Assembly: GCA_000002435.2 (NCBI GenBank)
Contig: CM018792.1
Length of the DNA: 64,000 bases
Reading direction: 5' to 3' (one strand)
From: Giardia intestinalis
Taxonomy: Eukaryota
Shown here: positions 5,858 through 42,528 of the stretch, one piece after another
Numbering within the stretch: position 1 is the stretch's first letter
Layout of the letters: the number at the start of each line of letters is the position of its first letter
Made by a program: the position numbers and the translations under genes
Notes under the pieces: generated by a model
Databases searched by the model: none
What the model was told of the DNA's origin: nothing
The model's input: only the letters and a program-made list of their open reading frames with translations

Positions 5858-5876
5858 ATCAAAAAACGTTTGTGGA

Positions 5877-7088: not shown

Positions 7089-7263
7089 CAAGTTGGTCTT
7101 CTCCACTTCTCAATGGCTACCGCTCCGGTTGCTGCTTGGAAGTGTTGTGAAGATGCTTGTCACAAGGTGATGAGGTGCGATAGTGAAGAGATGCTGGTGC
7201 TCGTCTTACTTTGAAGCCCATTGGCCTCTGTGAGCAGAGTAAACAGAAAGATGATCTAAAATT

Positions 7264-7476: not shown

Positions 7477-7555
7477 TTTACTCTCCGTTAGTGAGCCACG
7501 TTTGGCAGTGTGTACGCGGCTATCACTCTAAATCGAATCGCTCGACCAGATGAAA

Positions 7556-8812: not shown

Positions 8813-9047
8813 TACATAACTTTACTAGCACAGAAGCATCGTACCCCCGCAGGCAAAGGCGAAGCAGGCCCCCACTCGAGTCCCAAGATGTCTTGAATAA
8901 ATGTGTGCCGAACCAGAGGTGGACCTTGGCTGTCCAACTGGCACGGCCTGCTATCCCAACAAAGCATAACACCGATCTAGTGGTGAGGACCGATGGTAGT
9001 AATATTGGTTTTTATACAGTACACTTTTGCTTGAAGCGACAATTAAA

Positions 9048-9782
9048 ATGTCTCGTTTTGACTCTCGCACGACTCTTTTTTCGCAGGACGGCCGTCTCCT
9101 GCAGGTTGAGTACGCGATAAAGGCAGTAACGATTGCCGCGCCGTGCCTCGCAATCCTGGCCCAAGACGGGATTGTCTTTGTCGCCCAGAAGAAGCTGCCA
9201 TCGAAACTCAGCGATCAGCAGACAAGCGAAAAGATTTACAAGATCGATTCCCACATTGTGTGCGCTGTTTCTGGGCTAACCTCCGATGCCAATATCCTTA
9301 TCGACGAGGCCAGAACCTACAGTCAAAAATGGCTAGCAGTCTATGACGAACCTATTCCCGTCGAAGTTCTAGTTCAATATATTTCGGATGTCAAACAGAA
9401 CTACACGCACCACGGAGGACTGCGTCCATATGGCGTCTCCTTCCTTTTTGGGGGCTGGGATGCCCACCTTGGGTTCCAATTGTACCAGACAGATCCCAGT
9501 GGGAATTATTCTGCGTGGGTTGCAACAAGCATAGGAGGGTCCGCTCCGGAAATAGCATCAGCTCTGAAGCAGAACATTGCAGATAGCAGTCAAAAGATTC
9601 TACTAAAGGAGGCCCAGCAATACGCTGTTTCTGCGTTAATTAAGACTACAGACATAACCAAGGTATCATCTGACAAAATGGAGATCCTTACGGTGGTGAA
9701 GGGCGAGAGTGGAGACATTCTTGCAAAGTACGTCTCTAATGCAGAGGTCGACGCCATCTGTCGACAACTGCAGGATAAGTGA
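9048..9782 (+). CDS. 20S proteasome subunit alpha type-4 (alpha3)
   Basis: The track ORF starts at TTG 9027; the real ATG is 9048 (MSRFDSRTTLFSQDGRLLQVEYAIKAV). This N-terminus matches the alpha-subunit signature and is closest to PSMA4 ([28 protein letters not shown]). Confidence 0.88.
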   Translation: MSRFDSRTTLFSQDGRLLQVEYAIKAVTIAAPCLAILAQDGIVFVAQKKLPSKLSDQQTSEKIYKIDSHIVCAVSGLTSDANILIDEARTYSQKWLAVYDEPIPVEVLVQYISDVKQNYTHHGGLRPYGVSFLFGGWDAHLGFQLYQTDPSGNYSAWVATSIGGSAPEIASALKQNIADSSQKILLKEAQQYAVSALIKTTDITKVSSDKMEILTVVKGESGDILAKYVSNAEVDAICRQLQDK

Positions 9783-9787
9783 ACGCA

Positions 9788-21400: not shown

Positions 21401-24400
21401 GTGTGGCATCCGAACAGGCCCGACAGTTATGACTGCTTCTGAGAACAGCCAGCATGACTGGATGAGGACATAAGAACTTACGGAGACCCTCACAGTCTTG
21501 ATGTCTGGGAGAACGCGGGGGCTGATCACTCTGAAATTGTCCATCTCATGAGCTGGTTTCCGATAGCAGGCATAACAAGGAAGTGACCCCTAATTATACA
21601 CAATCTCATGCCAGCCCATCGCAGCCTAGAGCATCCTTGTCTGGCCTGCCAGTCCATCCATGACGTCAGTAGATGTGTCAGCATTCCATATCATCGGCCA
21701 CTTTGCTGCTGCACAGTCAGAGTACTGCCCGTGGCATTGCTTGCTGATGCTCTGCATAGGGCCCTGTTCCCGTGGCAGTGACAGGTGAGCCTCTCTGCAG
21801 ATGCAGATCTAATGATATGGTTCCTCTTGGACCTTCCACCTCTGCTTCTGTCTAGTATCTCACACAATATGAAGTGGCCAGTGGCTGTTATTGGATCCTT
21901 CAACATAGTTATTACACATGTATGTGCCCATCAAGACTACCATATAGGGTCACACAAGCCGAGAGCTCTGTCAGGCAGTTATTGGACTCGATGTCAAGAT
22001 GGCAGGAGGACAACACTCCCAGTGGTTGCTGAAGTATGAAGCGTTATATAGATCGTATAGCACACCAGCGGCAGTACGACGGTGGAGGGCATGCCTGGAG
22101 GTAGGTGGCACCTACAGCAAGCTGTATACTATCGTTGTCAGTACAATGGGCATAGTGGATACTGGACCCACGCTTTGGTAGCCTCGATTAGAGCAATTGC
22201 ACAGCGAAGGAGCAGGGCGTAGGGGCATGGAAACCAACCGGTCGAGCAACGTGTACATGTACGGGCACGGTTATAAGTCTCGCCCACACTAGTGGGTGGT
22301 GCTCTGCCTCGATGTGGACTCAGCGGGCTGGCTCTCATATCTATGACAGGGAGCAGGGCACCGTGCTGATCATGCGGTGAGAGGCCTTCATGCGGGCCTT
22401 TAACTAGCCTAGGCAGCGCTTAGAAGCGGCCAGCCCTCTCGTACCACGTCTCCTCTCCAAATAGGACTGAAGGCGCCCAAGGTGCCCTTCCAGAGTCTTG
22501 GTATCATGGAGCCCGTGCTAGGTAGGAAAGTTCTATATTACATGGCATGTGAGCTGCTAGGATGTATAAACACTTGCGTGGTTGTAGCGACACGTCCCCA
22601 CCAGCAAGTGTCAGAGTACATCGGTGGACAGGTGCATATTAAGTCAGGCACTCTGTGTGCGATCATGCATCACAGCTCTCGTAACGGGCTACGGGCGACC
22701 TGAGGACTAGTACTCTATGGCAACGCAATGTGAGGCGGTGAGCCTAAGGCAATCGCCGGATCGATGGCTTCAACGCGGCATCCAACAAGGTGCAGCAGGG
22801 CATCGAGCCAGCTGAGCATTGAACCAGGCCCTGGATAGGAGCTAAGAGCTCCTGTGCATGGCTGGGCTGCTCTCTAGATGGGAAAGGATGCACGTCGAGC
22901 TGGTCAGGTGCGATGCTGTAAGGTATCCACAGCTGTATCGATGCATCTGGTAAGTCCACACTGGACTCCGGGAAGCACGCTGCCGGACAAGCCGAGGAGG
23001 CTCGAGGGATGATGGCGCCGTCTTGTTATCGCTATGCAGTGCTCCGTGGACATGTATACAAACCAGCATCTCCTGGTAGCCGAGGAGGGGGCAGAGCTAG
23101 GAGACGGCGAGTGTCCCATTATGAACGACTCCAGGCGCTACCCGATCACTCCTTGGAAGGGCATATGCCTCGGCTAGGTTGCATCACATCCAGAGTAGAA
23201 GAGGAAGCTGTACTGTCCTATTCGTTTCTCAGGACAATGTGCGAATAGAAAGCGGCCCAGCGACTGACACTCTGCACCGTCCTCCTCATCCGCGGCCTGA
23301 GCAGCCAGATGCCAGGCTCGATATGTAGGACGGAAGCTGCGAAGAATAAACTCATCACGGGGCCGATTGTCTGACATCAAAAAATCCAAAGGGACGGTAG
23401 CGCCCACTGTCTCCTGGGAGAGCACATCATGCACAGTACCAGCCGTGCCAGCCTTGGCTTCTTAGGGGAGTAACCTGGGGACGTCCTGTACTAGCCTCGA
23501 CCTGTGAGGCGTTACGACCTGTGAATAGCACAAAAGAAGGCAACTGGATGTACAGACAGTGCATTGTGTTCGTGGAAGTATATCGCAACTTCTAGGTGTA
23601 TACAGCGGCACTAAGCCGGGCATCTCAACTGGCCTGCATTGGCGACCTGCTTGCCATCGTGTTTGCTGTGATGAGAGGCTGTGTCCGTCCAACAGATTGA
23701 ACAGGTATTGCACTTGCTTCTCTGGTGATGCATGCATGGTCATATGTAGCTCTGGTAGGTAGCGTGGATACTATGATAGCTAAGCTGTCTGCCATCAGTA
23801 GAGAATAGCAGCTGATCGCGCCAGAGACTCTTCCAGGTAAGCCTTCGGTCTTCGTGCCTGCTTCCCCACTAACTATAGTAATAACTGTATATCCAGAACA
23901 ATGCCATGAAACGCTCCACTGCCTTTCAGAGTGAGACATGGACCTGCGTATAGGGCTAGAAATAGAACTCTGTACACCAACTGTTATGCGCCTGGCGTGA
24001 TGTCAGGCTTAGACCGCGGCACGATCTCTGCGTGCCTATGTGCTCGCGTGCATGCTCACTGCTATGTTGGACAGTGCAGCAAGGAGGTTGGCCTCTGAGT
24101 GCACCCACTCTACAGTGACTAGTCCTTGGTTGCACGTCTCAACGGAGGACGGTGCTACTTGGATGTGCAAAAGACTATCTGTGCACGGTGGCTCCTGGAG
24201 AGCTGGTTCGCACAAAAAAGGTAGAGGCGACCAACAGACCAGGGAGGTAAGATCAGCGCTAGAGAGTCTAGTTATAAATCTGGATTGCAACGAGGACACT
24301 TGTAATGCCTTTCTGGCCTCCGAACGTAGAAAGACTGCAAGGCCTATAAATAGATCGGAGGCTACTTTTTGATTTTGTGCATTTGTAGCGGCGTAATATT

Positions 24401-27180
24401 TATTGGGATCCAGCCTCGTCTGAAGCTGGGGAAATTCACTTTCTCTCCATATACAGGCGAGGATCTATTGTAGAGGCATACTGTGCAGGCCGGTACCAGT
24501 CGGCGTGGTTGCTGTCCACAAATGTCTCACTTACGTTCTCCCACAACAGATGAATCGCCAAAGTGCCTCTTGGATTGCGTGATGTCCTACAGTGCATCTC
24601 TGCCTTCGACCAAAGGTTGCTACACACACTGCGTAGTTTGGATTGCTCATCATCCAGGGTGATCTGATCAGCTCTCGTCCTCTGCGTGTCTATCTTGTGT
24701 GGCCACTGCTGATGGTCTTTCCAGATCAGCGGGTGCCTCTATCGGTCCCACAGAGACACGCATCATGTAGGTGACTATTGCAGACCAGAGTCCTATCTAC
24801 CAAGGAAAAGGGTCAATCTGTTTACCGCGTAGGCATTCATTGTGTGCCCTATATAGTCCAGCAGGTCTTGTGCTCTTTAACATCTTCTCAGAGCCCTGTC
24901 TGGAGCCCGCGTGCATATCGTTACTACCAAACACTTAGCAGCTTCGACTGACCACCTAGGACGTCAAATCCCTTGCGCTGCACAGTGGGTATGCTCAGCG
25001 TGAGAGATACATAGTCAGCATCAGCCTTCTCAGCTCATCGTTTGGGTAATACTACTGTTGTTTTTCATCCAGTTAGCTGGCGCGAGGACCCAGCTCATGG
25101 CCAGCAAACCGAGAAAGGCCATTCCGGGAGGTCTTCAAGCGCGCTAGTACCTCGTTAGTGGGTAGCTAACAATGACCTTGGCGCATATCTCTGCCAAGAC
25201 ACGGCCTCTTTGAGCAGAGCATAAAAGTGGACCCTGTCATCCTGCGGCCCTGCTGATTTTTCGGACAGCAGGGATCGGAGCAGCTCAGATTAGCATTAGT
25301 CACCTCTGGGTCTCCATCTGTCTTCGTTGCCTGAGATGTGCTTGATCCTGTAGACTGAGAAGGGCGCTATACTGTACTCGTGTCTGCATGCCTCAGCCAG
25401 GCAGGGCTACCCTCTTGGAGACTACGCTGAGGTACCACACATCCCGAGGAACCTGTATGGAGTACCACAGCCCAAGGGCACCTTTGTCTGTCGAACGCAA
25501 GTTGTAGTTATGGCTTCATAAGTGCAGCCTTTCTTAAAATAACTGATCAACTACAGAATTCGTCTACTCACCCAGAGCCACCTGATGGAGGATGATATCA
25601 GTCTCGTCAGTAGTCTATAACGTACACCAGTCGAATCTCACAGATGAACAAGGGCTACCCAGCCCGCAGCACTAGACATTAGCAGATATCCTTCACGACA
25701 AGGGAGATGAGCGACTTGTAGACCACGGTAGTCGCCTGCCCATTGAAAATTTTTCAGTCACTGACCTAGGCCAGCTTATTACAAGACTCTTGGCGAGTTG
25801 TATCAAAAATGCATGCTTATGGGACTCCCAGTTCAAGGTGTATGCTGTCGTACCCTACTATTTTTCACACCAGCCTGTAGACATCGGTTCTTTTGGCCTC
25901 TAGTGGAGCCAAGGAAATCGCAGGATATGACGCCCTCAGTAGGGCTTTATCTGACTCTTATAGCTATATGACAGGAGGATGCCGGCCTTCTATGCATTAT
26001 GTAACGCGTGCTAAGCAACACCAGTACAACCCCTACAGTGTGGCATGATTCGCGAGTCAAAAGGTAGGACGCTTGGGCTGATTGGTATGTCTCCTCGGGA
26101 CCAACTACAGCTCGGACCAAAGGTCATGAGCGAATGCTATTCGATTCTCTTATCAGCAGATGGGGGTCAACTGCTCTAACACCCACAGGAGGCCACAAAA
26201 GGTACTGGACCAGGCATCCGGCCAATTGCTGGCAAATCAACACAACCTCCTTGGATCTCCATTCTTTCCTCACAGGCATCCACATGTAGGAAGCTCTGGG
26301 GGCCTAGAGCCCTACACTAACAGGCTCAAGATATTGCACTCCTAGGTGCTTCCATTAGTGGTGGTAGCGACAGCACTAGGATGATCCAGAGGGGAGGATA
26401 AGAGTCCTGATCCATCAGTTCAGGGGTGGCACAGTTTGGGCAGGGCTTCCTCCTTGTCTAAATTTGGGAGTGCTGGCCTCGCCCTCTGACCATCTGACAC
26501 CTTATCATGCGATGGGGAACCTTAATAGTATCCACTACAAAAAGGCAGAAATAGCGTCATGCATACTCAACAATCCATAGCGTCTCATAGGCTAATCTAC
26601 ACTGATTCACACTTCCACGAACCCTAGCGATCACTGTAGCCTTTTCTCGGGATCTCGCACCGGACTGTCCTTGAGTGCAGTTCCCTCACGATAGCCAGGA
26701 GTCGCAGGCATAATCCAAAGGAGTGAAGATGCCACAGAGGCGGAGAGGAGGTCATCGGCGCACGGGGGTCCGCAAGGGCCTGGCCCGCGCAGGGGAGGCA
26801 CAGGGGGCTGACTCATCAGGGACGCAGATACGCCAGGAGAGGAGCCAGCAATGAACCCACGGCACAGTGAGGGCATCCGAGCCGTCCTTTGATTGGCCTC
26901 AAAGTAGGGAGGCGGCGAGCGTGTAGAGAGGTCTCACCACCTATTTTTGGATTTTCTGTTTCCCTGCGTGTTGTGCAGGGGGCATAGGGTTCAGACCCAG
27001 AGAGCTCGCAGGGGGCTGTATGCAATAGATGTGCTTAGTATTCGATGAGCTTCTATGTCCTAAGCAGAGGTATCGTAGGAGACGAATCTCTTTGGAGTAA
27101 TTAGCACAGTACATAGTAAGTCAGGTCTTTAGTCTTAAGTATCTTATTCTTGCTCACGCGGTAAGCTGAGAAGGACCTCA

Positions 27181-29064
27181 ATGTTGTTGGTAGCTTTCTA
27201 TTTTGTGCTGAGTGCTCTCGCGGCAGCATGCAAGCAAGCACAAAATTGTGCAAATGAAAGATGTGAAATGGTTGGCGAAACAGAAATATGCACAGAATGT
27301 AAGGACCAAGGAAATGTCCCCGTTAACGGAGTATGTATGCCGAAAGATAATGACGCCGTTACAACTGCTGGTTGCAAAAAGAATGGAGGCGCTGATTTAG
27401 GAGCAGAAGACAAGGTATGTGGACAATGCGACGGGGTTCACTTCCTCTATAAGGGTGGTTGCTATAGCACCGCCGATGCGACCGGGCAGAAGTTATGCAC
27501 CGATGCCGCGGAGGGAGTGTGCTCAGCGGCCGCAGTGGGGTACTTCATTCCACCGGGGGCACAGAAGACAGACCAGTCTGTTATCTTGTGTGGTGATGTC
27601 ACTGAGATAACACTGACCAATGGCAAAAAGTATAAAGGAGTTCAGCATTGTACAGTATGCACTGCTCCTGAAGCAGCAGAGTCTACTGCTAAGCCTGCAG
27701 TGTGCACAGCTTGTGACGAAGGATTCTTTGCCGCATCTGAGGGAACATGCACAGCTTGTGCTGACAACAATAATTGCGCTAAGTGTGATGCAGGAGCAGA
27801 TAAATGTACGAAGTGCAAAGCAACCGCTGCCAATAAATATTTTAAAGATAGTGGCGATGGAACGGGCACATGTGTCAATGAACAGACCTGCAAAGAACAA
27901 AGTACCCATTTTCCAAAAGATGATCCCAATAATGGCAACAAATGCTTATCTTGTAGTGATGATAAAAGTGGTGGAATAGCAGACTGCAAAACATGCACTC
28001 CAAAGGAGAATTCCGAAGGCCCAATTCTCATTACATGCTCTGCTTGTGCAACAGATACCAACAAACCCAATGTTGCCGGGACAAAGTGCATTGCATGCAC
28101 TGTAAAAGATTGCAAGAAGTGTAATGACGATGGCACGTGTGCAGAGTGCGACAATACTAGGAAGCTCACCCCGACAAAGGAGTGCGTAGATAAGTGCGAA
28201 AAGCTTGAGGGATACTTTGACGGAGATGATGGTACTTGCAGGGCGTGCAACTCTGTCTGTAAAACGTGTAACGGTGAAGATCCATATCAGTGCACCGGCT
28301 GTCCTGCAAAGAAGGTGCTTAAATACACCGTTGAAAGCACTCCGGACAGTGGTAGCACCTGTGTAGACGAGTGCACAACAAACACAAATGGCTGTGCAGA
28401 ATGCGGCGCAACTATCGGAGAAGCTAAGTACTGCTCTAAATGCAGCGACGCCAAGCAAGCACCGCTGAATGGTAACTGCACTGCTAGTGTTAGAGCAGCC
28501 GCATCATGTACACAAATAGAAAACGGCATTTGTAAGAAATGCGCTACTAACTATTTCCTTTTCGAGGGCGGCTGCTACGAAACCACCAGGCAGCCTGGGA
28601 TGCAGATATGTAAGGATGCTGCAGGGAACGACGGCAAGTGCAAGACATGTGCCAATAACCTACCCTCCAACATCGATACCGGGGCCTGTCCTTCATGCCC
28701 AGCAGGTTGCGCCACGTGTACGGCAGCAGGGCAGACGTACACATGTCAGACTTGTCTTGCTGGATACTATCTTGATTCTACTAAAAACTTGTGCATAAAA
28801 TGTACTGAGAGTAGCGGTAATATCCAAGGCGTTACTAATTGCGTTAGCTGTAACCCGCCAGCTGGTAATAGTGGCCCTGTCACCTGCTATGTAAAGAAGG
28901 ATGGCACTAGCGATGGCGGTAACGATAACAGCACCGGTGGTAGTACAAACAAGAGCGGCCTTAGCACAGGCGCCATTGCAGGCATCTCTGTTGCTGTCAT
29001 CGTCGTTGTGGGTGGGCTCATAGGGTTCCTCTGCTGGTGGTTCATCTGTAGGGGGAAGGCGTAG
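27181..29064 (+). CDS. Variant-specific surface protein (VSP), copy A
   Basis: ATG at 27181 in the context cctcaATGTTG. It has an N-terminal signal peptide (MLLVAFYFVLSALAA). The 627-aa protein contains dozens of CXXC motifs, two GGCY motifs (YKGGCYSTAD; FEGGCYETT), a C-terminal TM segment (GAIAGISVAVIVVVGGLIGFLCWWFI), and the invariant Giardia VSP tail CRGKA followed by the stop. AGTAAAC lies 15 nt after the stop. Confidence 0.93.
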   Translation: MLLVAFYFVLSALAAACKQAQNCANERCEMVGETEICTECKDQGNVPVNGVCMPKDNDAVTTAGCKKNGGADLGAEDKVCGQCDGVHFLYKGGCYSTADATGQKLCTDAAEGVCSAAAVGYFIPPGAQKTDQSVILCGDVTEITLTNGKKYKGVQHCTVCTAPEAAESTAKPAVCTACDEGFFAASEGTCTACADNNNCAKCDAGADKCTKCKATAANKYFKDSGDGTGTCVNEQTCKEQSTHFPKDDPNNGNKCLSCSDDKSGGIADCKTCTPKENSEGPILITCSACATDTNKPNVAGTKCIACTVKDCKKCNDDGTCAECDNTRKLTPTKECVDKCEKLEGYFDGDDGTCRACNSVCKTCNGEDPYQCTGCPAKKVLKYTVESTPDSGSTCVDECTTNTNGCAECGATIGEAKYCSKCSDAKQAPLNGNCTASVRAAASCTQIENGICKKCATNYFLFEGGCYETTRQPGMQICKDAAGNDGKCKTCANNLPSNIDTGACPSCPAGCATCTAAGQTYTCQTCLAGYYLDSTKNLCIKCTESSGNIQGVTNCVSCNPPAGNSGPVTCYVKKDGTSDGGNDNSTGGSTNKSGLSTGAIAGISVAVIVVVGGLIGFLCWWFICRGKA

Positions 29065-29078
29065 ATGTGTACTTAGAT

Positions 29079-29085
29079 AGTAAAC
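29079..29085 (+). promoter_or_regulatory. Polyadenylation signal AGTAAAC for VSP copy A (mirror copy at 31802-31808 on the minus strand for copy B)
   Basis: tagatAGTAAACgcg immediately 3' of the VSP stop (29062-29064). Confidence 0.6.
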
Positions 29086-29615
29086 GCGTTACTTACGTAG
29101 CTTGTGTAGATATGCTGATAGGTCCACCTGCAGTGCGTCCAGAAGTCTCACGAGTAAACTTTCGCTTAATTCCTGGCCAATCCAGAGACGAAGCCTGATC
29201 GTAGACAGCATGCTAGGGGCTTCCCTCTACTAGTGCATCCAGGACCCGGTATATTCATCGGTCGCTTCGCAGGGATGTGCTCGGTTTGGGTATCCACGTC
29301 GGTCCTTTAGGGGTTCAGGTCTTCTCGTGGACCCTCTGCTCTATCAGTGGCGCCTCTCCTTGGTCTCTCTTCATAGCGGGTGAAGCCCGGGTCGCTGTCT
29401 TTTTTAGATGCCCCGTCTGTCGGGGGCTGCTACCGGGCTCTCCACTGGCCGCCCCTCGGTGTCCGGCTGTGGCTCGGGCAGCGCTCTACAGTCGCGGTCA
29501 CGTAGGTCCCAGTGGGCCAGCTGGTGGGGAGGCGGGGTTGCTGGGGCGGTGGGACTGGTGGGGGCTGAGGTGGGGGTGCTTGTATGTGCCTCTGGGTCCG
29601 GTGGGTCATTGGGGT

Positions 29616-31274
29616 GATCCCCGCTCTGTTTGCCAAGGTGGCTGTGTCTGATCCCCAGCCTTCGTTGCACTCCCGAGACACAGGCACCGACGATCGTGTC
29701 GTGTCCCCCTGACTGAGCGCCTCCCTTGGCCCCTTGTCTCGGGCAGTACTGCCTCTCTGTCTGGCTGGTGCGTGAGGGTTGAGGCAAGCCATCGCAGCCT
29801 CTCCTGCTACTCGCTGATGCTCTGTGCGGGTCTGCTGAGCCCCTGGTGTGCCCTGTCCGGTGCCTCGACGGTAGTTCGCCTGGGACCAGCAGGGGCATGG
29901 ATGACCCTGTGGATGGGATGGGGTTCTCTCGTGCCTCTAGTGTGATGACTCAGAAGACTGGCATGGTGGGGCACCGGGTGGCTGGAGAGTCCCCGTGGTC
30001 AGCTGTGCTGCTCCTGGTGGGTCCTCGTTGTGGAGCACTGTGTGTTGTTCATAGGCAGAGGTGAGCCTCCTTAGTCTCAAGATGCTCACAGCAGAGAGGA
30101 GCACGCTGAGGGTCACCCATACCTCACCTGCTGTGCCCTCGGGGAGTTCCCGATGTGATTCACTAGGACCTTGCCACCTCCTCGTGGCCCTGATGACCCC
30201 TCGGGGAGAGTCGGGGTGTCCTATGCCGAGGGGCGTGCACCCTCCTGCATGAGCTGGGACCCACTGCACTGCCTCCAAGGAGGTCTGCTATGAGAGGAAG
30301 TGAATGATCGACAGCCCCTCAGAGTGCAGTGGATGGTGCTCGTGGTCGTCTCTGTGATCGGGCATCACTCTGATGGTCAGTCCTGTGCCTTTGTGGTGCT
30401 CAGAGGTCACCTGTGCTCCATCGCCTGCTGGACAGCCGGGCCTCTTGTGGCGTCCGAAGGCCTCCTCACTCCTCTGGCTGCTACTCCCTCTGGTCATCAA
30501 TGAAGACAGTCGAGACCAGCGGAGTCTCGGTGAGTCGTGCCTGCCTGGGTATCATTGGGGCTGGCAGCTGTCAGGGCTCTGCCACTGCTCACCTGCCTGG
30601 AGTGTGCCTCCCTTGGGCCTGCTCTGCTGTGCTGCGTGAGTCCTCTGGCTTCCTATCATACCCTGACTGTGAGGGTGACTCCATCTGGCCTTCTGATGCC
30701 CCTGTGGATGAGCATGGCAGCTGTCTGGCTGGGGATCTCTGGTGCCCGTGTCTGTTGCTGCCTCTCGGGTGCTCGGGTGGTTGCCTGGCGCTCTCGTATG
30801 GGGGCACAGTCAGCGTGTCCCGAGCAGACTCCAGTCCTCTCTGGGTCTACACAGTCTGTTCGTGTGTGGATGGTCCTCCTGGACTCATGTCCATCTGTGT
30901 GCACTGTCACTCAGCCTCGAGAGCAGGCCAGTGCAGTCATCAAGGGTCGCTGTCAGAGGGAGTCGTCTGTCACTACATCGCTCGGGCAGCCCTGCAGATC
31001 AGGCTGGTTGCTGTGCACCCTCATCTCTCGTGGCAGGGCTGTTTGACTCCCCTTGGCTATCCTCTCTGTCCCGGGGTGCACGGCTCCTTCGGGTGGCTGA
31101 CAGGGTAGTGGCCTCCGGTGAGTCTGCACTGGGAGGCACCGAGAAGCGAGGGCAGCTAGGCTGGCACCACTCTCCGGCTCCTGGGGTGCTGTCTGGATGG
31201 AGGCACTCACAGACCACGAGTCCACAGAGGGGTGAGTCACAGATGGACAGCCCCCAGTCACCACAGCTGCGATC
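29616..31274. other. Unique, non-palindromic central spacer of the inverted repeat: A-poor (plus strand), GC-rich, low-complexity block
   Basis: There are no mirror ORFs here, and reverse-complement comparison across the symmetry centre (30443/30444) shows no identity. The plus strand is strikingly A-depleted and rich in ctg/gtg/tgg/cct, so it gives long spurious ORFs in all three plus-strand frames (231, 215 and 169 aa). The same composition continues leftwards into the inner 340 bp of the left arm (29277-29615). Confidence 0.7.
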
Positions 31275-34200
31275 ATCCCAGTCCACCGGACCCAGAGGCA
31301 CATACAAGCACCCCCACCTCAGCCCCCACCAGTCCCACCGCCCCAGCAACCCCGCCTCCCCACCAGCTGGCCCACTGGGACCTACGTGACCGCGACTGTA
31401 GAGCGCTGCCCGAGCCACAGCCGGACACCGAGGGGCGGCCAGTGGAGAGCCCGGTAGCAGCCCCCGACAGACGGGGCATCTAAAAAAGACAGCGACCCGG
31501 GCTTCACCCGCTATGAAGAGAGACCAAGGAGAGGCGCCACTGATAGAGCAGAGGGTCCACGAGAAGACCTGAACCCCTAAAGGACCGACGTGGATACCCA
31601 AACCGAGCACATCCCTGCGAAGCGACCGATGAATATACCGGGTCCTGGATGCACTAGTAGAGGGAAGCCCCTAGCATGCTGTCTACGATCAGGCTTCGTC
31701 TCTGGATTGGCCAGGAATTAAGCGAAAGTTTACTCGTGAGACTTCTGGACGCACTGCAGGTGGACCTATCAGCATATCTACACAAGCTACGTAAGTAACG
31801 CGTTTACTATCTAAGTACACATCTACGCCTTCCCCCTACAGATGAACCACCAGCAGAGGAACCCTATGAGCCCACCCACAACGACGATGACAGCAACAGA
31901 GATGCCTGCAATGGCGCCTGTGCTAAGGCCGCTCTTGTTTGTACTACCACCGGTGCTGTTATCGTTACCGCCATCGCTAGTGCCATCCTTCTTTACATAG
32001 CAGGTGACAGGGCCACTATTACCAGCTGGCGGGTTACAGCTAACGCAATTAGTAACGCCTTGGATATTACCGCTACTCTCAGTACATTTTATGCACAAGT
32101 TTTTAGTAGAATCAAGATAGTATCCAGCAAGACAAGTCTGACATGTGTACGTCTGCCCTGCTGCCGTACACGTGGCGCAACCTGCTGGGCATGAAGGACA
32201 GGCCCCGGTATCGATGTTGGAGGGTAGGTTATTGGCACATGTCTTGCACTTGCCGTCGTTCCCTGCAGCATCCTTACATATCTGCATCCCAGGCTGCCTG
32301 GTGGTTTCGTAGCAGCCGCCCTCGAAAAGGAAATAGTTAGTAGCGCATTTCTTACAAATGCCGTTTTCTATTTGTGTACATGATGCGGCTGCTCTAACAC
32401 TAGCAGTGCAGTTACCATTCAGCGGTGCTTGCTTGGCGTCGCTGCATTTAGAGCAGTACTTAGCTTCTCCGATAGTTGCGCCGCATTCTGCACAGCCATT
32501 TGTGTTTGTTGTGCACTCGTCTACACAGGTGCTACCACTGTCCGGAGTGCTTTCAACGGTGTATTTAAGCACCTTCTTTGCAGGACAGCCGGTGCACTGA
32601 TATGGATCTTCACCGTTACACGTTTTACAGACAGAGTTGCACGCCCTGCAAGTACCATCATCTCCGTCAAAGTATCCCTCAAGCTTTTCGCACTTATCTA
32701 CGCACTCCTTTGTCGGGGTGAGCTTCCTAGTATTGTCGCACTCTGCACACGTGCCATCGTCATTACACTTCTTGCAATCTTTTACAGTGCATGCAATGCA
32801 CTTTGTCCCGGCAACATTGGGTTTGTTGGTATCTGTTGCACAAGCAGAGCATGTAATGAGAATTGGGCCTTCGGAATTCTCCTTTGGAGTGCATGTTTTG
32901 CAGTCTGCTATTCCACCACTTTTATCATCACTACAAGATAAGCATTTGTTGCCATTATTGGGATCATCTTTTGGAAAATGGGTACTTTGTTCTTTGCAGG
33001 TCTGTTCATTGACACATGTGCCCGTTCCATCGCCACTATCTTTAAAATATTTATTGGCAGCGGTTGCTTTGCACTTCGTACATTTATCTGCTCCTGCATC
33101 ACACTTAGCGCAATTATTGTTGTCAGCACAAGCTGTGCATGTTCCCTCAGATGCGGCAAAGAATCCTTCGTCACAAGCTGTGCACACTGCAGGCTTAGCA
33201 GTAGACTCTGCTGCTTCAGGAGCAGTGCATACTGTACAATGCTGAACTCCTTTATACTTTTTGCCATTGGTCAGTGTTATCTCAGTGACATCACCACACA
33301 AGATAACAGACTGGTCTGTCTTCTGTGCCCCCGGTGGAATGAAGTACCCCACTGCGGCCGCTGAGCACACTCCCTCCGCGGCATCGGTGCATAACTTCTG
33401 CCCGGTCGCATCGGCGGTGCTATAGCAACCACCCTTATAGAGGAAGTGAACCCCGTCGCATTGTCCACATACCTTGTCTTCTGCTCCTAAATCAGCGCCT
33501 CCATTCTTTTTGCAACCAGCAGTTGTAACGGCGTCATTATCTTTCGGCATACATACTCCGTTAACGGGGACATTTCCTTGGTCCTTACATTCTGTGCATA
33601 TTTCTGTTTCGCCAACCATTTCACATCTTTCATTTGCACAATTTTGTGCTTGCTTGCATGCTGCCGCGAGAGCACTCAGCACAAAATAGAAAGCTACCAA
33701 CAACATTGAGGTCCTTCTCAGCTTACCGCGTGAGCAAGAATAAGATACTTAAGACTAAAGACCTGACTTACTATGTACTGTGCTAATTACTCCAAAGAGA
33801 TTCGTCTCCTACGATACCTCTGCTTAGGACATAGAAGCTCATCGAATACTAAGCACATCTATTGCATACAGCCCCCTGCGAGCTCTCTGGGTCTGAACCC
33901 TATGCCCCCTGCACAACACGCAGGGAAACAGAAAATCCAAAAATAGGTGGTGAGACCTCTCTACACGCTCGCCGCCTCCCTACTTTGAGGCCAATCAAAG
34001 GACGGCTCGGATGCCCTCACTGTGCCGTGGGTTCATTGCTGGCTCCTCTCCTGGCGTATCTGCGTCCCTGATGAGTCAGCCCCCTGTGCCTCCCCTGCGC
34101 GGGCCAGGCCCTTGCGGACCCCCGTGCGCCGATGACCTCCTCTCCGCCTCTGTGGCATCTTCACTCCTTTGGATTATGCCTGCGACTCCTGGCTATCGTG

Positions 34201-37200
34201 AGGGAACTGCACTCAAGGACAGTCCGGTGCGAGATCCCGAGAAAAGGCTACAGTGATCGCTAGGGTTCGTGGAAGTGTGAATCAGTGTAGATTAGCCTAT
34301 GAGACGCTATGGATTGTTGAGTATGCATGACGCTATTTCTGCCTTTTTGTAGTGGATACTATTAAGGTTCCCCATCGCATGATAAGGTGTCAGATGGTCA
34401 GAGGGCGAGGCCAGCACTCCCAAATTTAGACAAGGAGGAAGCCCTGCCCAAACTGTGCCACCCCTGAACTGATGGATCAGGACTCTTATCCTCCCCTCTG
34501 GATCATCCTAGTGCTGTCGCTACCACCACTAATGGAAGCACCTAGGAGTGCAATATCTTGAGCCTGTTAGTGTAGGGCTCTAGGCCCCCAGAGCTTCCTA
34601 CATGTGGATGCCTGTGAGGAAAGAATGGAGATCCAAGGAGGTTGTGTTGATTTGCCAGCAATTGGCCGGATGCCTGGTCCAGTACCTTTTGTGGCCTCCT
34701 GTGGGTGTTAGAGCAGTTGACCCCCATCTGCTGATAAGAGAATCGAATAGCATTCGCTCATGACCTTTGGTCCGAGCTGTAGTTGGTCCCGAGGAGACAT
34801 ACCAATCAGCCCAAGCGTCCTACCTTTTGACTCGCGAATCATGCCACACTGTAGGGGTTGTACTGGTGTTGCTTAGCACGCGTTACATAATGCATAGAAG
34901 GCCGGCATCCTCCTGTCATATAGCTATAAGAGTCAGATAAAGCCCTACTGAGGGCGTCATATCCTGCGATTTCCTTGGCTCCACTAGAGGCCAAAAGAAC
35001 CGATGTCTACAGGCTGGTGTGAAAAATAGTAGGGTACGACAGCATACACCTTGAACTGGGAGTCCCATAAGCATGCATTTTTGATACAACTCGCCAAGAG
35101 TCTTGTAATAAGCTGGCCTAGGTCAGTGACTGAAAAATTTTCAATGGGCAGGCGACTACCGTGGTCTACAAGTCGCTCATCTCCCTTGTCGTGAAGGATA
35201 TCTGCTAATGTCTAGTGCTGCGGGCTGGGTAGCCCTTGTTCATCTGTGAGATTCGACTGGTGTACGTTATAGACTACTGACGAGACTGATATCATCCTCC
35301 ATCAGGTGGCTCTGGGTGAGTAGACGAATTCTGTAGTTGATCAGTTATTTTAAGAAAGGCTGCACTTATGAAGCCATAACTACAACTTGCGTTCGACAGA
35401 CAAAGGTGCCCTTGGGCTGTGGTACTCCATACAGGTTCCTCGGGATGTGTGGTACCTCAGCGTAGTCTCCAAGAGGGTAGCCCTGCCTGGCTGAGGCATG
35501 CAGACACGAGTACAGTATAGCGCCCTTCTCAGTCTACAGGATCAAGCACATCTCAGGCAACGAAGACAGATGGAGACCCAGAGGTGACTAATGCTAATCT
35601 GAGCTGCTCCGATCCCTGCTGTCCGAAAAATCAGCAGGGCCGCAGGATGACAGGGTCCACTTTTATGCTCTGCTCAAAGAGGCCGTGTCTTGGCAGAGAT
35701 ATGCGCCAAGGTCATTGTTAGCTACCCACTAACGAGGTACTAGCGCGCTTGAAGACCTCCCGGAATGGCCTTTCTCGGTTTGCTGGCCATGAGCTGGGTC
35801 CTCGCGCCAGCTAACTGGATGAAAAACAACAGTAGTATTACCCAAACGATGAGCTGAGAAGGCTGATGCTGACTATGTATCTCTCACGCTGAGCATACCC
35901 ACTGTGCAGCGCAAGGGATTTGACGTCCTAGGTGGTCAGTCGAAGCTGCTAAGTGTTTGGTAGTAACGATATGCACGCGGGCTCCAGACAGGGCTCTGAG
36001 AAGATGTTAAAGAGCACAAGACCTGCTGGACTATATAGGGCACACAATGAATGCCTACGCGGTAAACAGATTGACCCTTTTCCTTGGTAGATAGGACTCT
36101 GGTCTGCAATAGTCACCTACATGATGCGTGTCTCTGTGGGACCGATAGAGGCACCCGCTGATCTGGAAAGACCATCAGCAGTGGCCACACAAGATAGACA
36201 CGCAGAGGACGAGAGCTGATCAGATCACCCTGGATGATGAGCAATCCAAACTACGCAGTGTGTGTAGCAACCTTTGGTCGAAGGCAGAGATGCACTGTAG
36301 GACATCACGCAATCCAAGAGGCACTTTGGCGATTCATCTGTTGTGGGAGAACGTAAGTGAGACATTTGTGGACAGCAACCACGCCGACTGGTACCGGCCT
36401 GCACAGTATGCCTCTACAATAGATCCTCGCCTGTATATGGAGAGAAAGTGAATTTCCCCAGCTTCAGACGAGGCTGGATCCCAATAAATATTACGCCGCT
36501 ACAAATGCACAAAATCAAAAAGTAGCCTCCGATCTATTTATAGGCCTTGCAGTCTTTCTACGTTCGGAGGCCAGAAAGGCATTACAAGTGTCCTCGTTGC
36601 AATCCAGATTTATAACTAGACTCTCTAGCGCTGATCTTACCTCCCTGGTCTGTTGGTCGCCTCTACCTTTTTTGTGCGAACCAGCTCTCCAGGAGCCACC
36701 GTGCACAGATAGTCTTTTGCACATCCAAGTAGCACCGTCCTCCGTTGAGACGTGCAACCAAGGACTAGTCACTGTAGAGTGGGTGCACTCAGAGGCCAAC
36801 CTCCTTGCTGCACTGTCCAACATAGCAGTGAGCATGCACGCGAGCACATAGGCACGCAGAGATCGTGCCGCGGTCTAAGCCTGACATCACGCCAGGCGCA
36901 TAACAGTTGGTGTACAGAGTTCTATTTCTAGCCCTATACGCAGGTCCATGTCTCACTCTGAAAGGCAGTGGAGCGTTTCATGGCATTGTTCTGGATATAC
37001 AGTTATTACTATAGTTAGTGGGGAAGCAGGCACGAAGACCGAAGGCTTACCTGGAAGAGTCTCTGGCGCGATCAGCTGCTATTCTCTACTGATGGCAGAC
37101 AGCTTAGCTATCATAGTATCCACGCTACCTACCAGAGCTACATATGACCATGCATGCATCACCAGAGAAGCAAGTGCAATACCTGTTCAATCTGTTGGAC

Positions 37201-40200
37201 GGACACAGCCTCTCATCACAGCAAACACGATGGCAAGCAGGTCGCCAATGCAGGCCAGTTGAGATGCCCGGCTTAGTGCCGCTGTATACACCTAGAAGTT
37301 GCGATATACTTCCACGAACACAATGCACTGTCTGTACATCCAGTTGCCTTCTTTTGTGCTATTCACAGGTCGTAACGCCTCACAGGTCGAGGCTAGTACA
37401 GGACGTCCCCAGGTTACTCCCCTAAGAAGCCAAGGCTGGCACGGCTGGTACTGTGCATGATGTGCTCTCCCAGGAGACAGTGGGCGCTACCGTCCCTTTG
37501 GATTTTTTGATGTCAGACAATCGGCCCCGTGATGAGTTTATTCTTCGCAGCTTCCGTCCTACATATCGAGCCTGGCATCTGGCTGCTCAGGCCGCGGATG
37601 AGGAGGACGGTGCAGAGTGTCAGTCGCTGGGCCGCTTTCTATTCGCACATTGTCCTGAGAAACGAATAGGACAGTACAGCTTCCTCTTCTACTCTGGATG
37701 TGATGCAACCTAGCCGAGGCATATGCCCTTCCAAGGAGTGATCGGGTAGCGCCTGGAGTCGTTCATAATGGGACACTCGCCGTCTCCTAGCTCTGCCCCC
37801 TCCTCGGCTACCAGGAGATGCTGGTTTGTATACATGTCCACGGAGCACTGCATAGCGATAACAAGACGGCGCCATCATCCCTCGAGCCTCCTCGGCTTGT
37901 CCGGCAGCGTGCTTCCCGGAGTCCAGTGTGGACTTACCAGATGCATCGATACAGCTGTGGATACCTTACAGCATCGCACCTGACCAGCTCGACGTGCATC
38001 CTTTCCCATCTAGAGAGCAGCCCAGCCATGCACAGGAGCTCTTAGCTCCTATCCAGGGCCTGGTTCAATGCTCAGCTGGCTCGATGCCCTGCTGCACCTT
38101 GTTGGATGCCGCGTTGAAGCCATCGATCCGGCGATTGCCTTAGGCTCACCGCCTCACATTGCGTTGCCATAGAGTACTAGTCCTCAGGTCGCCCGTAGCC
38201 CGTTACGAGAGCTGTGATGCATGATCGCACACAGAGTGCCTGACTTAATATGCACCTGTCCACCGATGTACTCTGACACTTGCTGGTGGGGACGTGTCGC
38301 TACAACCACGCAAGTGTTTATACATCCTAGCAGCTCACATGCCATGTAATATAGAACTTTCCTACCTAGCACGGGCTCCATGATACCAAGACTCTGGAAG
38401 GGCACCTTGGGCGCCTTCAGTCCTATTTGGAGAGGAGACGTGGTACGAGAGGGCTGGCCGCTTCTAAGCGCTGCCTAGGCTAGTTAAAGGCCCGCATGAA
38501 GGCCTCTCACCGCATGATCAGCACGGTGCCCTGCTCCCTGTCATAGATATGAGAGCCAGCCCGCTGAGTCCACATCGAGGCAGAGCACCACCCACTAGTG
38601 TGGGCGAGACTTATAACCGTGCCCGTACATGTACACGTTGCTCGACCGGTTGGTTTCCATGCCCCTACGCCCTGCTCCTTCGCTGTGCAATTGCTCTAAT
38701 CGAGGCTACCAAAGCGTGGGTCCAGTATCCACTATGCCCATTGTACTGACAACGATAGTATACAGCTTGCTGTAGGTGCCACCTACCTCCAGGCATGCCC
38801 TCCACCGTCGTACTGCCGCTGGTGTGCTATACGATCTATATAACGCTTCATACTTCAGCAACCACTGGGAGTGTTGTCCTCCTGCCATCTTGACATCGAG
38901 TCCAATAACTGCCTGACAGAGCTCTCGGCTTGTGTGACCCTATATGGTAGTCTTGATGGGCACATACATGTGTAATAACTATGTTGAAGGATCCAATAAC
39001 AGCCACTGGCCACTTCATATTGTGTGAGATACTAGACAGAAGCAGAGGTGGAAGGTCCAAGAGGAACCATATCATTAGATCTGCATCTGCAGAGAGGCTC
39101 ACCTGTCACTGCCACGGGAACAGGGCCCTATGCAGAGCATCAGCAAGCAATGCCACGGGCAGTACTCTGACTGTGCAGCAGCAAAGTGGCCGATGATATG
39201 GAATGCTGACACATCTACTGACGTCATGGATGGACTGGCAGGCCAGACAAGGATGCTCTAGGCTGCGATGGGCTGGCATGAGATTGTGTATAATTAGGGG
39301 TCACTTCCTTGTTATGCCTGCTATCGGAAACCAGCTCATGAGATGGACAATTTCAGAGTGATCAGCCCCCGCGTTCTCCCAGACATCAAGACTGTGAGGG
39401 TCTCCGTAAGTTCTTATGTCCTCATCCAGTCATGCTGGCTGTTCTCAGAAGCAGTCATAACTGTCGGGCCTGTTCGGATGCCACACCCCTGCAGGCCTCG
39501 GTGCTCTGAGCACAGCTTCCAGGCTGCATGCGTGCGTGGATGGACACCAGGTACGTCACTCGCTCCCTACTTTCTAAGCCTGCTATGACAAGGGTAGCTC
39601 TCACTAGCTTGAATCAGCTACGCCCCTGGCGTTCTACCCCGGGAGTTGCAGGGCCCAGACAGTTGTCTTATCTACACTATGGTTGCCATAATGACGGGTA
39701 TATGATCACAGCCCTGATGGGATCCTCTTCGCTGTCCTTAGCAGACCTCCAACTCTTCAATGGGACAGATACGGGGCACCGTCTACCGACACTTCCAACG
39801 GGGGTAGCAGGCGCAGTGCTCTCGATACCAATGATGGATCTACAAGAGGAAGTAGATCTTCCGCATGCCCTTGCCAGGAAGTGGCGCTGACGTGGGCCAA
39901 ACGTATTGTCCCCGAGCTGCGCCTTGGGAGCCGAGACCTCCGCTGACAATGGGTAAGACTTGCGCCATTGGGCGACTCTGTAGGGAGGCTCCAGGAGTTC
40001 TTAGAAGCAGCACCCGTGCAGTGAGGCTTCGAGAATCATCCAAGTGGCGCTATCCAAGGACCACTTCCCCGAGGGAACAGAGGGTTGGGGGACCGACTCC
40101 CGAAGGGCGCCTTTGCAGTCTACTGGACAGCAGAGAGGGCCAGAAAGCAACAATCACCTCCAGATCCACAGCTCCCCTATCATAGAGACACTGGGATGGT

Positions 40201-42386: not shown

Positions 42387-42454
42387 CGGGCAGGCCTGAG
42401 GACCGCAGGGACGGCCGCTCCTGCAGGAAGCACCAGGATGCGAGACCGGAAAAG

Positions 42455-42528
42455 CGCTCCCTGGCGGGCTTGAACCGCCGACCTTGCGGTTAACAGCCGC
42501 ACGCTCTAACCAGCTGAGCTAAGGAAGC
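42455..42528 (-). tRNA. tRNA-Asn (anticodon GUU)
   Basis: The reverse complement of 42455-42528 folds by hand into a canonical cloverleaf. Acceptor stem: GCTTCCT pairs with AGGGAGC (one G-U). Position 8 is T and position 9 is A. D-arm: GCTC / AGCTGGTTA / GAGC. Anticodon stem: TGCGG / CCGCA. Anticodon loop: CTGTTAA, with GTT at positions 34-36. Variable loop: AGGTC. T-arm: GGCGG / TTCAAGC / CCGCC. Discriminator: G. No encoded CCA, as expected for a eukaryote. It lies 69 bp outside the right edge of the palindrome. Confidence 0.85.

Follow-up and report, generated by a model that had tools for sequence, protein, structure and literature searches.

An old inverted module probably lies at the A-poor centre of a published palindromic VSP gene pair in Giardia intestinalis

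Inverted VSP pairs and other described palindromes

Identical inverted pairs of VSP genes are a long-noted and unexplained feature of the Giardia genome. The first of them, vsp1267, was found before any genome assembly was available (ref. 17 in Adam 2010, PMC2996952). According to the passages of that paper on strain WB, the ORFs are identical in 14 of 19 inverted pairs, and identical VSP genes are found only as inverted pairs; published counts assign 38-40 of the ~135 VSP genes of WB to such identical pairs. A footnote to the S4 table of a preprint (bioRxiv 10.1101/2022.03.07.483299) describes the intergenic regions as 'very similar' among the pairs of the cluster (*5) that includes the vsp20 pair. 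Seven identical inverted VSP pairs are found in G. muris.

Primate sex chromosomes reportedly harbor palindromes with arm-to-arm gene conversion. The locus described here has in common with them gene-bearing arms that are ~99.97% identical and a unique, non-palindromic spacer, and differs in arm size (11 kb, versus 9 kb to 1.45 Mb) and in the presence of one homologous spacer across many loci; the identity of the primate arms is best explained by intrachromosomal conversion, whereas in Giardia conversion is what we infer. Fold-back inverted duplications with a spacer are said to occur in the human genome, and priming from inverted repeats is reported for ODIRA and for the rDNA palindrome of Tetrahymena. 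Shared with these systems is an asymmetric loop, roughly one kilobase long and continuous with a single arm; the imperfect inverted homology of short length beside the junction may be a further likeness, and in the inverted-repeat-primed systems a pre-existing short inverted repeat with its loop can become the centre of a far larger palindrome. Unlike the fold-back products, the Giardia structure is interstitial, has a second, abrupt outer junction and shows no terminal deletion. Foldback or long-TIR transposable elements are likewise multi-copy, with long inverted termini and a non-coding core; the Giardia module differs from them in having neither a target-site duplication nor a transposase, and in its fixed register behind a VSP gene wherever this is visible.

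The window analysed (64,000 nt of G. intestinalis, assembly GCA_000002435.2, contig CM018792.1) contains an inverted repeat of 11,108 nt per arm with three mismatches, enclosing a spacer of 1,678 nt, as found by a repeat search. The positions 29277-29615 and 31275-31610, which the initial annotation had given as inverted copies of each other, are the inner tip of these arms. The features of the palindrome are as follows.

18497..29604, plus strand: left arm, made up of VSP-upstream DNA poor in ORFs (8.7 kb), the VSP gene and its 3' flank (540 nt)
27181..29064, plus strand: VSP gene GL50803_103992 (vsp20 copy), 627 aa, C-terminal CRGKA
29070..29089, plus strand: extended VSP polyadenylation motif TACTTAGATAGTAAACGCGT, read from the sequence
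29526..29576, plus strand: G-run motif of the G-quadruplex type, separated by 28 nt from the end of the repeat, with a mirror copy at 31311-31361 (minus strand)
31283..42390, minus strand: right arm, identified by repeat search and arm alignment as the left arm in inverted orientation
31823..33706, minus strand: second, sequence-identical VSP copy in the right arm, tail-to-tail with the first
42454..42528, minus strand: tRNA-Asn(GTT) predicted by ARAGORN, 64 nt outside the right arm and not in the repeat

The VSP ORF matched Pfam VSP PF03302 (E 1.3e-89), was 100% identical to an NCBI VSP of Giardia WB (P0009), and its translation ended in ...CWWFICRGKA. Its length, 72 Cys, 25 CXXC and CAATGTT start context are those of the vsp20.1 row in Adam 2010 (PMC2996952). 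The two ORFs are identical (no arm mismatch lies inside them), convergent and separated by 2,758 nt, as in the class of inverted VSP pairs, where identical convergent ORFs lie 2-4 kb apart; the perfect repeat stops 540 nt beyond the VSP stop codon, within the class range of 139-729 nt for the divergence point. This is in agreement with Table 5 of Adam 2010 (PMC2996952), which lists vsp20 with a divergence of 541 and an inter-ORF distance of 2,759, and with the 2,758 bp given for the pair in Table 2 of Xu 2020 (PMC7000408) and in the S4 table of the preprint (bioRxiv 10.1101/2022.03.07.483299), whose supplementary table S6 also lists the polyadenylation motif for GL50803_00103992. Hence, the A-poor block forms the non-coding middle of the already published identical tail-to-tail VSP pair GL50803_103992/d103992 (vsp20.1/20.2) on WB chromosome 4, a member of the class in gene size, orientation, spacing and 540-nt divergence point. 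The palindrome itself was therefore published previously; the refinement offered here is modest, being a correct reading of a known structure and no new rearrangement. The passages of PMC2996952, PMC7000408, bioRxiv 10.1101/2022.03.07.483299 and the vsp1267 source that deal with the Giardia VSP pairs give neither the 11.1-kb arm length nor the strand-asymmetric A-depletion, and they carry no decayed repeat extension, old-junction position, non-coding conservation of the loop or non-WB copies.

The three arm mismatches, at left-arm positions 18500, 19239 and 21083, all fall in the outer 2.6 kb (p ~0.013, post hoc). Upstream of the VSP gene, the left arm (18497-27180) has no ORF of at least 200 aa, and a Pfam search of the ORFs in this part gave no matches. 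The outer junction is abrupt and has no decayed extension. A regex scan of the 64 kb detected only three G-quadruplex-type motifs, all near palindrome boundaries, one of them 135 nt from the left outer boundary; the G-run stretch at 29526..29576 is the most indel-prone part of the alignment of family copies.

Composition and the junctions of the A-poor centre

The block at 29277-31274 consists of 13.1% A, 29.4% C, 33.0% G and 24.5% T, against 25% A in the window, and is the lowest-A DNA of the window: the minimum A fraction of any 1-kb window is 0.116 (at 29258), and outside the palindrome centre none falls below 0.187. A weaker A-poor bias begins at ~28985, within the transmembrane coding region of the VSP gene. 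The A and T counts per 50 nt continue unchanged across 29604, so that the block is contiguous through left arm and spacer, as had been proposed, and the A6/T6 tract (29400-29405 / 31482-31487) is its sole AT-rich island. The centre is divided as follows.

29277..29604, plus strand: innermost part of the left arm, strongly depleted in A (7.9%), with the T-depleted 31283-31610 as its mirror image
29605..29672, plus strand: left copy of the decayed inner repeat extension (anchored alignment, p<0.002)
29673..31094, plus strand: unique A-poor loop (A ~14%), a conserved non-coding module
31095..31183, plus strand: locus-specific insertion of ~80-87 nt, compositionally neutral, exactly in the flip zone (BLAST gaps 31094/31175)
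31184..31282, plus strand: T-poor right end of the spacer, including the right copy of the decayed extension
31218..31282, plus strand: right copy of the decayed inner repeat extension (consensus comparison with the left copy)

The initial annotation had described the block as low-complexity DNA in which composition switches to its complement at 31275. The compositional bias held up, including the prevalence of CTG, CTC, GTG, TGG and CCT triplets and the long stop-free frames (1.2-4.1 stops per 100 codons over six frames); complexity is only mildly lowered, with a distinct 6-mer fraction of 0.60 versus 0.70 for the block's own shuffles, and the block is not repetitive. The switch is real as well, since the right side has the complementary composition (A 26.5% and T 7.9% at 31283-31610), and its position was misplaced: a least-squares change-point lies at 31201 and the cumulative T-A plateau peaks at 31094-31212, which is ~80 nt left of 31275 and 70-190 nt left of the perfect-repeat boundary. 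In five other copies of the centre, the flip is set 80-97 nt inward of the repeat boundary. The spacer itself has no internal palindromy, its best self-reverse-complement local score being 25 against a shuffle mean of 27, and that outcome leaves the proposed asymmetry standing. A search for the source of the insertion at 31095..31183, which is missing from six other copies in the alignment, found none.

The short inverted match that had been suggested as a check at the junction was present: the inverted repeat continues for ~65 nt into the spacer in decayed form and ends near the flip. Inside the boundary, the left and right consensus sequences agree at 36 of 61 columns (59%), compared with 10 of 42 (24%) in the background (Fisher p 5.6e-4), and beyond 61 columns the likeness drops to background. 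The region ~31184-31218 is accordingly put forward as a candidate for the ancestral junction on sequence comparison, 31283 being only the end of perfect identity. It could also be that the extension is not the decay of a longer repeat and is instead a pre-existing imperfect inverted repeat that primed a fold-back.

Copies outside the window and the nature of the loop

Whether the block occurs elsewhere had been left open, and it does: six non-WB DNA copies of the A-poor centre were obtained from metagenome contigs (L001, L002, L003, L005, L009 and L010), and the S4 table footnote points to further WB pairs. These copies are 74-91% identical to the window, contain 13-15% A and 24-26% T, are all in the same orientation, and show homologous positions wherever they reach a junction. 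Left-type junction sequences are 90% and right-type 85% conserved across loci, while the two types are 54% alike over the 61 columns inward of the boundary. L005, an independent orthologue-like contig whose assembly runs without a break over the junction, is collinear at 29604 (85% identity) with the left arm followed by the spacer, and this agrees with the earlier proposal that the two were ancestrally one sequence. L001, from a short-read metagenome contig, holds a VSP gene, an inverted repeat (513-963 / 2560-2974) with the loop, and then a VSP-like gene in the same orientation, with no inverted VSP; its two arms share 87% identity and stop at positions homologous to those of the window. As the inner junctions are common to the other copies, including one with diverged arms, the junction is an old one that belongs to the family as a whole. 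The module follows the VSP stop codon in a constant register in the window, L001, L002 and L005, and the homology extends into the VSP 3' end; L003, L009, L010 and the remaining contigs end before any VSP. The A-poor centre is a multi-copy non-coding module, with the S4 table footnote as the single source for its membership within WB.

Loop identity among the copies is 88-92%. Between the window and L005, the loop is 89-90% identical, against 81% for the 3' flank, 80% for the A-poor arm, 85% upstream and 83% at third codon positions, so in these alignments the module surpasses the flanking non-coding DNA in conservation; arms that evolve faster, with no constraint on the loop, could also produce this difference. 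A protein-coding gene in the block was rejected, since pairs of copies differ by 14-16 indels of which only 0-1 are multiples of three, substitutions by codon position (15/20/23, 22/21/22 and 22/21/23) give no third-position excess, and a Pfam search of the block returned no family above cut-off. An rDNA, telomeric or other catalogued RNA element was also rejected, the only Rfam hit being a chance one to mir-305 (19.9 bits, where the gathering score is 66). On neither strand does the RNA folding energy of the block depart from that of shuffles (mean z ~0). Located 3' of the VSP polyadenylation motif, the A-poor block would lie outside the mature mRNA.

Proposed history and rival explanations

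It is probable that the locus is a known VSP palindrome with an old shared inverted module, the arms of which have been homogenised or re-extended. In this history, the 3' flank of a VSP gene would long ago have been copied in inverted orientation ~1.6 kb downstream by fold-back or template-switch inverted duplication, leaving an asymmetric A-poor loop enclosed by a short inverted repeat, with the flip at ~31184-31218 as the presumed trace of that old junction. The module (flank, loop and inverted flank) was then inherited by, or spread to, a family of VSP loci; the A-poor block consists of the innermost part of the left arm's 3' flank, a decayed stretch of repeat (~65 nt) and the unique loop of ~1.5 kb. 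At the present locus, the repeat reaches 11.1 kb per side, taking in the VSP gene and 8.7 kb upstream. An ancient junction together with near-perfect 11-kb arms calls for arm-to-arm gene conversion or recent re-extension. Conversion between the arms, which would halt where homology falls off at 29604/31283, is suggested by the sequence pattern, the arms showing the identity of at least 99.9% around a unique non-palindromic spacer that is expected of it; alternatively, the arms may have been re-extended recently as the last step, by fold-back replication for which the repeat of the module itself served as primer. The junction being ancient and common to paralogous loci, the original event is not reconstructable here. 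What the comparison adds to the published picture is that many pairs possess one old asymmetric centre, which is conserved though non-coding and is able to exist without a second gene.

The initial annotation had ascribed the palindrome to a single event at this locus, a fold-back or inverted duplication with its breakpoint at ~31275, which is improbable as the explanation of the whole structure. Such an event would account for the spacer being contiguous with one arm only, that is, for one seamless and one flipped junction with a short inverted match adjoining, and the arm identity and the abrupt outer junction are those of a young duplication. It is contradicted for the inner junction, which is not limited to this locus and is present in the six diverged copies, and also by the 87% likeness of the L001 arms, by the flip at 31094-31212 and by the many WB pairs of nearly equal geometry in the passages of Adam 2010 (PMC2996952); it survives only for the extension of the arms to 11 kb. 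Between fold-back and a pre-formed hairpin element the sequences do not decide: L001 carries the module on its own, so that an inverted-repeat module already in place could have seeded the 11-kb arms. Generalised to all pairs, this seeding would make every pair young and independent, a short inverted-repeat module behind many VSP genes repeatedly giving rise to large palindromes through template switches where forks stall, as described for ODIRA and the Tetrahymena rDNA. G-quadruplex-type motifs and tRNA genes are classic fork barriers, and the former occur at distances of 28 nt (inner boundaries) and 135 nt (left outer boundary), with the tRNA gene 64 nt from the right outer one; the abrupt outer junction and near-identical arms fit as well. 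We nonetheless consider repeated seeding unlikely, given that the solo example is a single short-read contig, that perfect identity reaches the old boundary and includes the part expected as a diverged primer arm, and that young pairs predict frequent intermediate divergence whereas the WB pairs in the passages of Adam 2010 (PMC2996952) are almost all identical.

Insertion downstream of VSP genes of a foldback-type mobile element, the pre-formed hairpin itself, is highly improbable. The multiple copies, long terminal inverted repeats, non-coding core and solo copy with diverged arms would suit it, but the ends of the L001 repeat show no target-site duplication, the module has no coding capacity, and copies at mutually unrelated sites were not seen, the window, L001, L002 and L005 having homologous flanks; the fixed register after the VSP stop and the homology into the VSP 3' end look like co-duplication rather than insertion. 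A false palindrome made by long-read chimeras or collapsed repeats is scarcely credible. Near-perfect 11-kb arms do approach read resolution, yet missed-adapter chimeras do not yield a 1.7-kb unique spacer, and metagenome contigs of other samples carry the same arm-loop junctions. Xu 2020 (PMC7000408) puts the largest resolvable duplications at perhaps ~20 kb; against an artefact, the geometry is equal in the Sanger assembly (541 / 2,759, PMC2996952) and the PacBio assembly (2,758, PMC7000408), and the vsp1267 pair was known before genome assemblies (PMC2996952). As for the loop, it is conceivable, though doubtful, that purifying selection acts on it as a functional non-coding element, either a transcript or promoter yielding antisense or hairpin RNA against VSP genes or a terminator or insulator separating the convergent genes, with A-depletion as part of the function. 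Its pairwise identity of 89-92%, both paralogous and orthologue-like, exceeds that of nearby non-coding DNA (60-87%) and of third codon positions; A-depletion persists in every copy though A gains outnumber losses among the substitutions (35 versus 13), and the A6/T6 tract is invariant. Against such a function stand the lack of an Rfam match, the shuffle-like folding energy and the longest invariant runs of 30-35 nt, no longer than divergence predicts by a rough estimate. Rather more speculative is the proposal that the module works as a cis-element, an inverted repeat and loop with G-quadruplex-prone flanks that seeds and stabilises identical inverted VSP pairs through fold-back replication and conversion and might feed RNAi-based VSP silencing via antisense or hairpin RNA. 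If true, it would account for a 1.5-kb non-coding loop more conserved than the synonymous sites of the adjacent gene, and a specific cis-module in place of random duplication would offer a testable handle on the origin and continued identity of the pairs.

No recovered contig of the related lineage holds both arms; L007 breaks off close to the boundary and L009 comprises the loop by itself, a pattern that hints at identical arms in that lineage too. L007 matches L005 at 99.5% before dropping to 83% at the inner flank.

Geometry of the palindrome and identity of its gene pair

The inverted copy of 29277-29615 reported in the initial annotation was found to be the tip of a true repeat 33 times longer. 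The palindrome consists of two arms enclosing a spacer of 1,678 nt, with an arm-to-arm identity of 99.97%.

Features of the palindrome and its boundaries
18497-29604, + strand, left arm (11,108 nt)
31283-42390, - strand, right arm (11,108 nt)
27181-29064, + strand, variant surface antigen (VSP) gene
31823-33706, - strand, VSP gene
42454-42528, - strand, tRNA-Asn(GTT) gene, 64 nt beyond the right arm
18334-18362, + strand, G-quadruplex-type motif
29526-29576, + strand, G-quadruplex-type motif
31311-31361, - strand, G-quadruplex-type motif

The arms differ by three mismatches (left-arm 18500, 19239 and 21083, equivalent to right-arm 42387, 41648 and 39804). All three are located within 2.6 kb of the outer ends of the arms, each 11.1 kb long (p about 0.013, post hoc), a clustering that could reflect either a homogenisation gradient from the centre or polishing errors.

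Each arm carries one 627-aa ORF with the C-terminus CRGKA and a Pfam VSP match (E 1.3e-89), and its product matched, at 100% identity, a VSP encoded on a 2.76-Mb contig of Giardia WB. The presence of 72 cysteines, 25 CXXC motifs and the start context CAATGTT corresponds to the vsp20.1 row of Adam et al. (2010; PMC2996952), in which vsp20.1 is GL50803_103992 of chromosome 4, a member of an identical tail-to-tail pair. For vsp20, Table 5 of that paper lists a 3' divergence point at 541 nt and an ORF-to-ORF distance of 2,759 nt; the corresponding distances measured in the window were 540 nt and 2,758 nt. An entry in Xu et al. (2020; PMC7000408) reads 'chr 4, d103992, 103992, -> <-, 627 aa, 2758', and the S4 table of bioRxiv 10.1101/2022.03.07.483299 includes the pair 103992/d103992 with nothing annotated between the genes and describes the intergenic regions across the cluster of pairs as 'very similar'. 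In view of the published pair geometry and the latter remark, both the pair and its resemblance to the rest of its family are already in the literature. The structure is thus an inverted VSP pair already catalogued for Giardia rather than a novel type of element, and an assembly artefact is very unlikely. Beyond what these rows and entries record, the shared centre is strand-asymmetric, conserved and non-coding, with an apparently decayed repeat edge; these properties provide a useful lead on how VSP pairs form.

A single intergenic gap, bounded by a 1,542-aa ORF and the tRNA-Asn gene, is taken up exactly by the palindrome. At the outer junction (18497/42390), the repeat stops abruptly and shows no decayed extension, and no homology to the module, i.e., the VSP 3' flank, the A-poor loop (29673-31094) and the inverted flank, was found in the outer flanks. 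The unique flanks (103-18396 and 42568-63989) harbor ordinary Giardia genes encoding ankyrin-repeat, type IA topoisomerase, LRR and DUF7899 proteins, along with large ORFs of 1,542 and 5,288 aa. The three G-quadruplex-type motifs are the only canonical ones in the 64-kb window. Two are set back 28 nt from the inner boundaries, one in each arm, and the third is found 135 nt beyond the left outer boundary (a post hoc observation); the inner motif was the most indel-variable stretch among the family copies. Both tRNA genes and G-quadruplexes are recognised replication-fork barriers, and the tRNA-Asn(GTT) gene may be relevant to the site at which the outer junction arose.

The arm interior (18497-27180 and its mirror 33707-42390) comprises 8.7 kb without any ORF longer than 132 aa in an otherwise gene-dense genome, and its eight longest ORFs showed no Pfam match. 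Parts of it were 67-72% identical to VSP-upstream DNA of the metagenome contig L002 and of a P15 (assemblage E) contig, and VSP-upstream regions therefore likewise constitute a repeat family.

Composition and coding status of the A-poor block

The A-depletion described for 29277-31274 was confirmed (A 13.1%, C 29.4%, G 33.0%, T 24.5%, as against 25% A in the whole window), with the lowest A per 1 kb of the window, 0.116, at 29258 compared to 0.187 or more away from the centre. Per-50-nt A and T counts were unchanged across 29604, in agreement with the proposed contiguity of left arm and spacer, and the complementary composition to the right was evident at 31283-31610 (A 26.5%, T 7.9%). The strand flip is real, but its assignment to 31275 was about 80 nt off: a least-squares fit with three change-points placed it at 31201, and the cumulative T-A curve showed a peak plateau at 31094-31212. 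The spacer was not internally palindromic (self-palindromy score 25 vs shuffle mean of 27). As for the supposed low complexity, complexity was only mildly reduced and tandem repeats were absent, ruling out a tandem or low-complexity repeat as the identity of the block.

The long stop-free frames are present as claimed, because one strand is lacking in A and the other in T. Indels among copies numbered 14-16 per pair, with 0-1 being multiples of three, and substitutions were evenly distributed over codon positions. No Pfam family above cut-off was found in the ORFs of the block. These sequence comparisons point clearly to a non-coding block. A VSP pseudogene in the spacer was ruled out, as tblastn with 120 VSPs matched the two genes only. 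A structured RNA was also rejected, as no signal of one was seen: the block had no match in Rfam, and its RNA folding energy showed no gain over shuffles on either strand.

The substitution spectrum among copies was strand-symmetric, with 35 gains and 13 losses of A, which rules out present-day strand-biased mutation as the cause of the A-depletion. With symmetric substitutions and A now rising, the depletion is inherited or selected rather than a product of present mutation bias. The sole AT-rich island of the block is the GCATCTAAAAAAG / CTTTTTTAGATGC tract at 29400-29405 (T6) / 31482-31487 (A6), invariant in four aligned copies (alignment A1). Speculatively, an AT-rich Giardia-type initiator at this tract would point transcription antisense into the VSP gene.

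Module copies and anatomy of the junction

The initial annotation had asked whether the A-poor block occurs elsewhere, and further copies were found in metagenome contigs. When a pseudo-ORF of the spacer was used as query, metagenome assemblies yielded eight predicted 'proteins'. HMMER, run exhaustively with the loop ORF (231 aa) as query, returned 8 proteins only, all module gene calls or weak low-complexity matches, adding no real family. The ORF across the left junction gave a single match as a protein query, and an invariant 29-nt stretch of the loop had no match in the JGI metagenome contigs scanned. The module looks Giardia-restricted. The contigs used were L001-L003, L005, L007, L009 and L010; L004 is the same contig as L005, and L006 is 100% identical to L005 over its 3,230 nt.

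Metagenome copies of the module
L001: window 28928-31097, 84%, extends past the right junction
L005: window 26427-30831, 85%, spans the left junction collinearly
L002, L003, L010: right half of the loop and right arm flank
L009: isolated loop contig corresponding to window 29612-31332

At minimum, L001, L002 and L009 are distinct copies from one and the same sample. All copies contained 13-15% A and 24-26% T in unchanged orientation. Ungapped identity over all comparisons was 88-92% in the loop, 76-87% in the A-poor arm flank and mostly 60-70% in the outer flank. Against the orthologue-like L005, identity was 89-90% in the loop, 81% in the 3' flank, 80% in the A-poor arm, 85% upstream and 83% at VSP third codon positions. 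In L002, a second, direct-orientation arm-flank copy (191-480) takes the place of the loop's left half, which shows that rearrangement or truncation of the module is possible. L007 and L005, from different samples, encode the same VSP protein and are 99.5% identical over 2,193 nt; similarity is lost about 265 nt beyond the stop codon, and the inner flank is only 83% alike. The two contigs may derive from opposite arms of a single palindrome whose inner flank has diverged, or else differ by strain.

Perfect arm identity ends at 29604/31283, and an apparently decayed continuation of the repeat runs inward. The short inverted homology expected by the junction was detected over the first 25-60 nt inside the boundaries, where the anchored alignment exceeded all 500 shuffles. 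In an alignment of ten sequences (four left, six right), the left and right consensus agreed in 36/61 columns (29612-29672 vs 31278-31218), compared to 10/42 in the next 42 columns inward (Fisher p 5.6e-4). Copies were 90% (left) and 85% (right) alike within sides and 54% between sides. The arms of L001 itself are just 87% identical and end at homologous positions, and in five other copies the flip is displaced 80-97 nt inward from the repeat boundary. An insertion of about 80-87 nt (31095-31183), neutral in composition and specific to the window locus, occurs exactly in the flip zone; it is missing from six other module copies, and no source for the 87 nt was detected. The shared junction positions, flips and insertion site would place an old junction at about 31184-31218, predating the divergence of all sampled copies. 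Hence, the junction is an old family trait and not, as had been proposed, the breakpoint of this locus. The polarity noted initially is a real feature from which a reasonable inference was drawn, the loop being contiguous with one arm only.

Proposed origin and upkeep of the palindrome

The comparisons establish an asymmetric loop joined to one arm, an ancient family-wide junction pair and a conserved non-coding loop. The module would have arisen long ago, when a VSP 3' flank underwent inverted duplication by fold-back or template switching, with the 11-kb arms at the window locus presumably kept identical by arm-to-arm gene conversion that ends where homology collapses. Inverted VSP pairs of WB are nearly all identical, and identical VSPs are reported in inverted pairs only (Adam et al., 2010; PMC2996952). 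G. muris shows a like pattern of identical inverted VSP pairs. Together with the mismatches in the outer 2.6 kb, these pairs lend indirect support to gene conversion. The main alternative suggested is that large palindromes were seeded repeatedly from a pre-existing short-repeat module; in its favor, the module in L001 is flanked by two same-orientation VSP-like genes, without an inverted VSP. A mobile element is a weak candidate for the source of the module, as a target-site duplication is absent at the L001 repeat and the module is in fixed register after the VSP wherever a VSP is visible.

Structure of the L001 'solo' module
2-424, + strand, VSP tail
513-963 / 2560-2974, inverted repeat (87% identical) with A-poor loop
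4266-6071, + strand, VSP-like gene

The P15 contig L008 (ACVC01000111.1) contains inverted repeats (3461-9815 / 11983-18347) of at least 6.4 kb, 98.7% identical, around a loop of 2,167 nt. The A-poor module is absent around the single VSP in this loop (10001-11917), which is the closest P15 relative of the window VSP (67% aa). The repeats are VSP-upstream DNA homologous to the window arms, and L008 may represent a VSP cassette capable of inversion or an assembly error.
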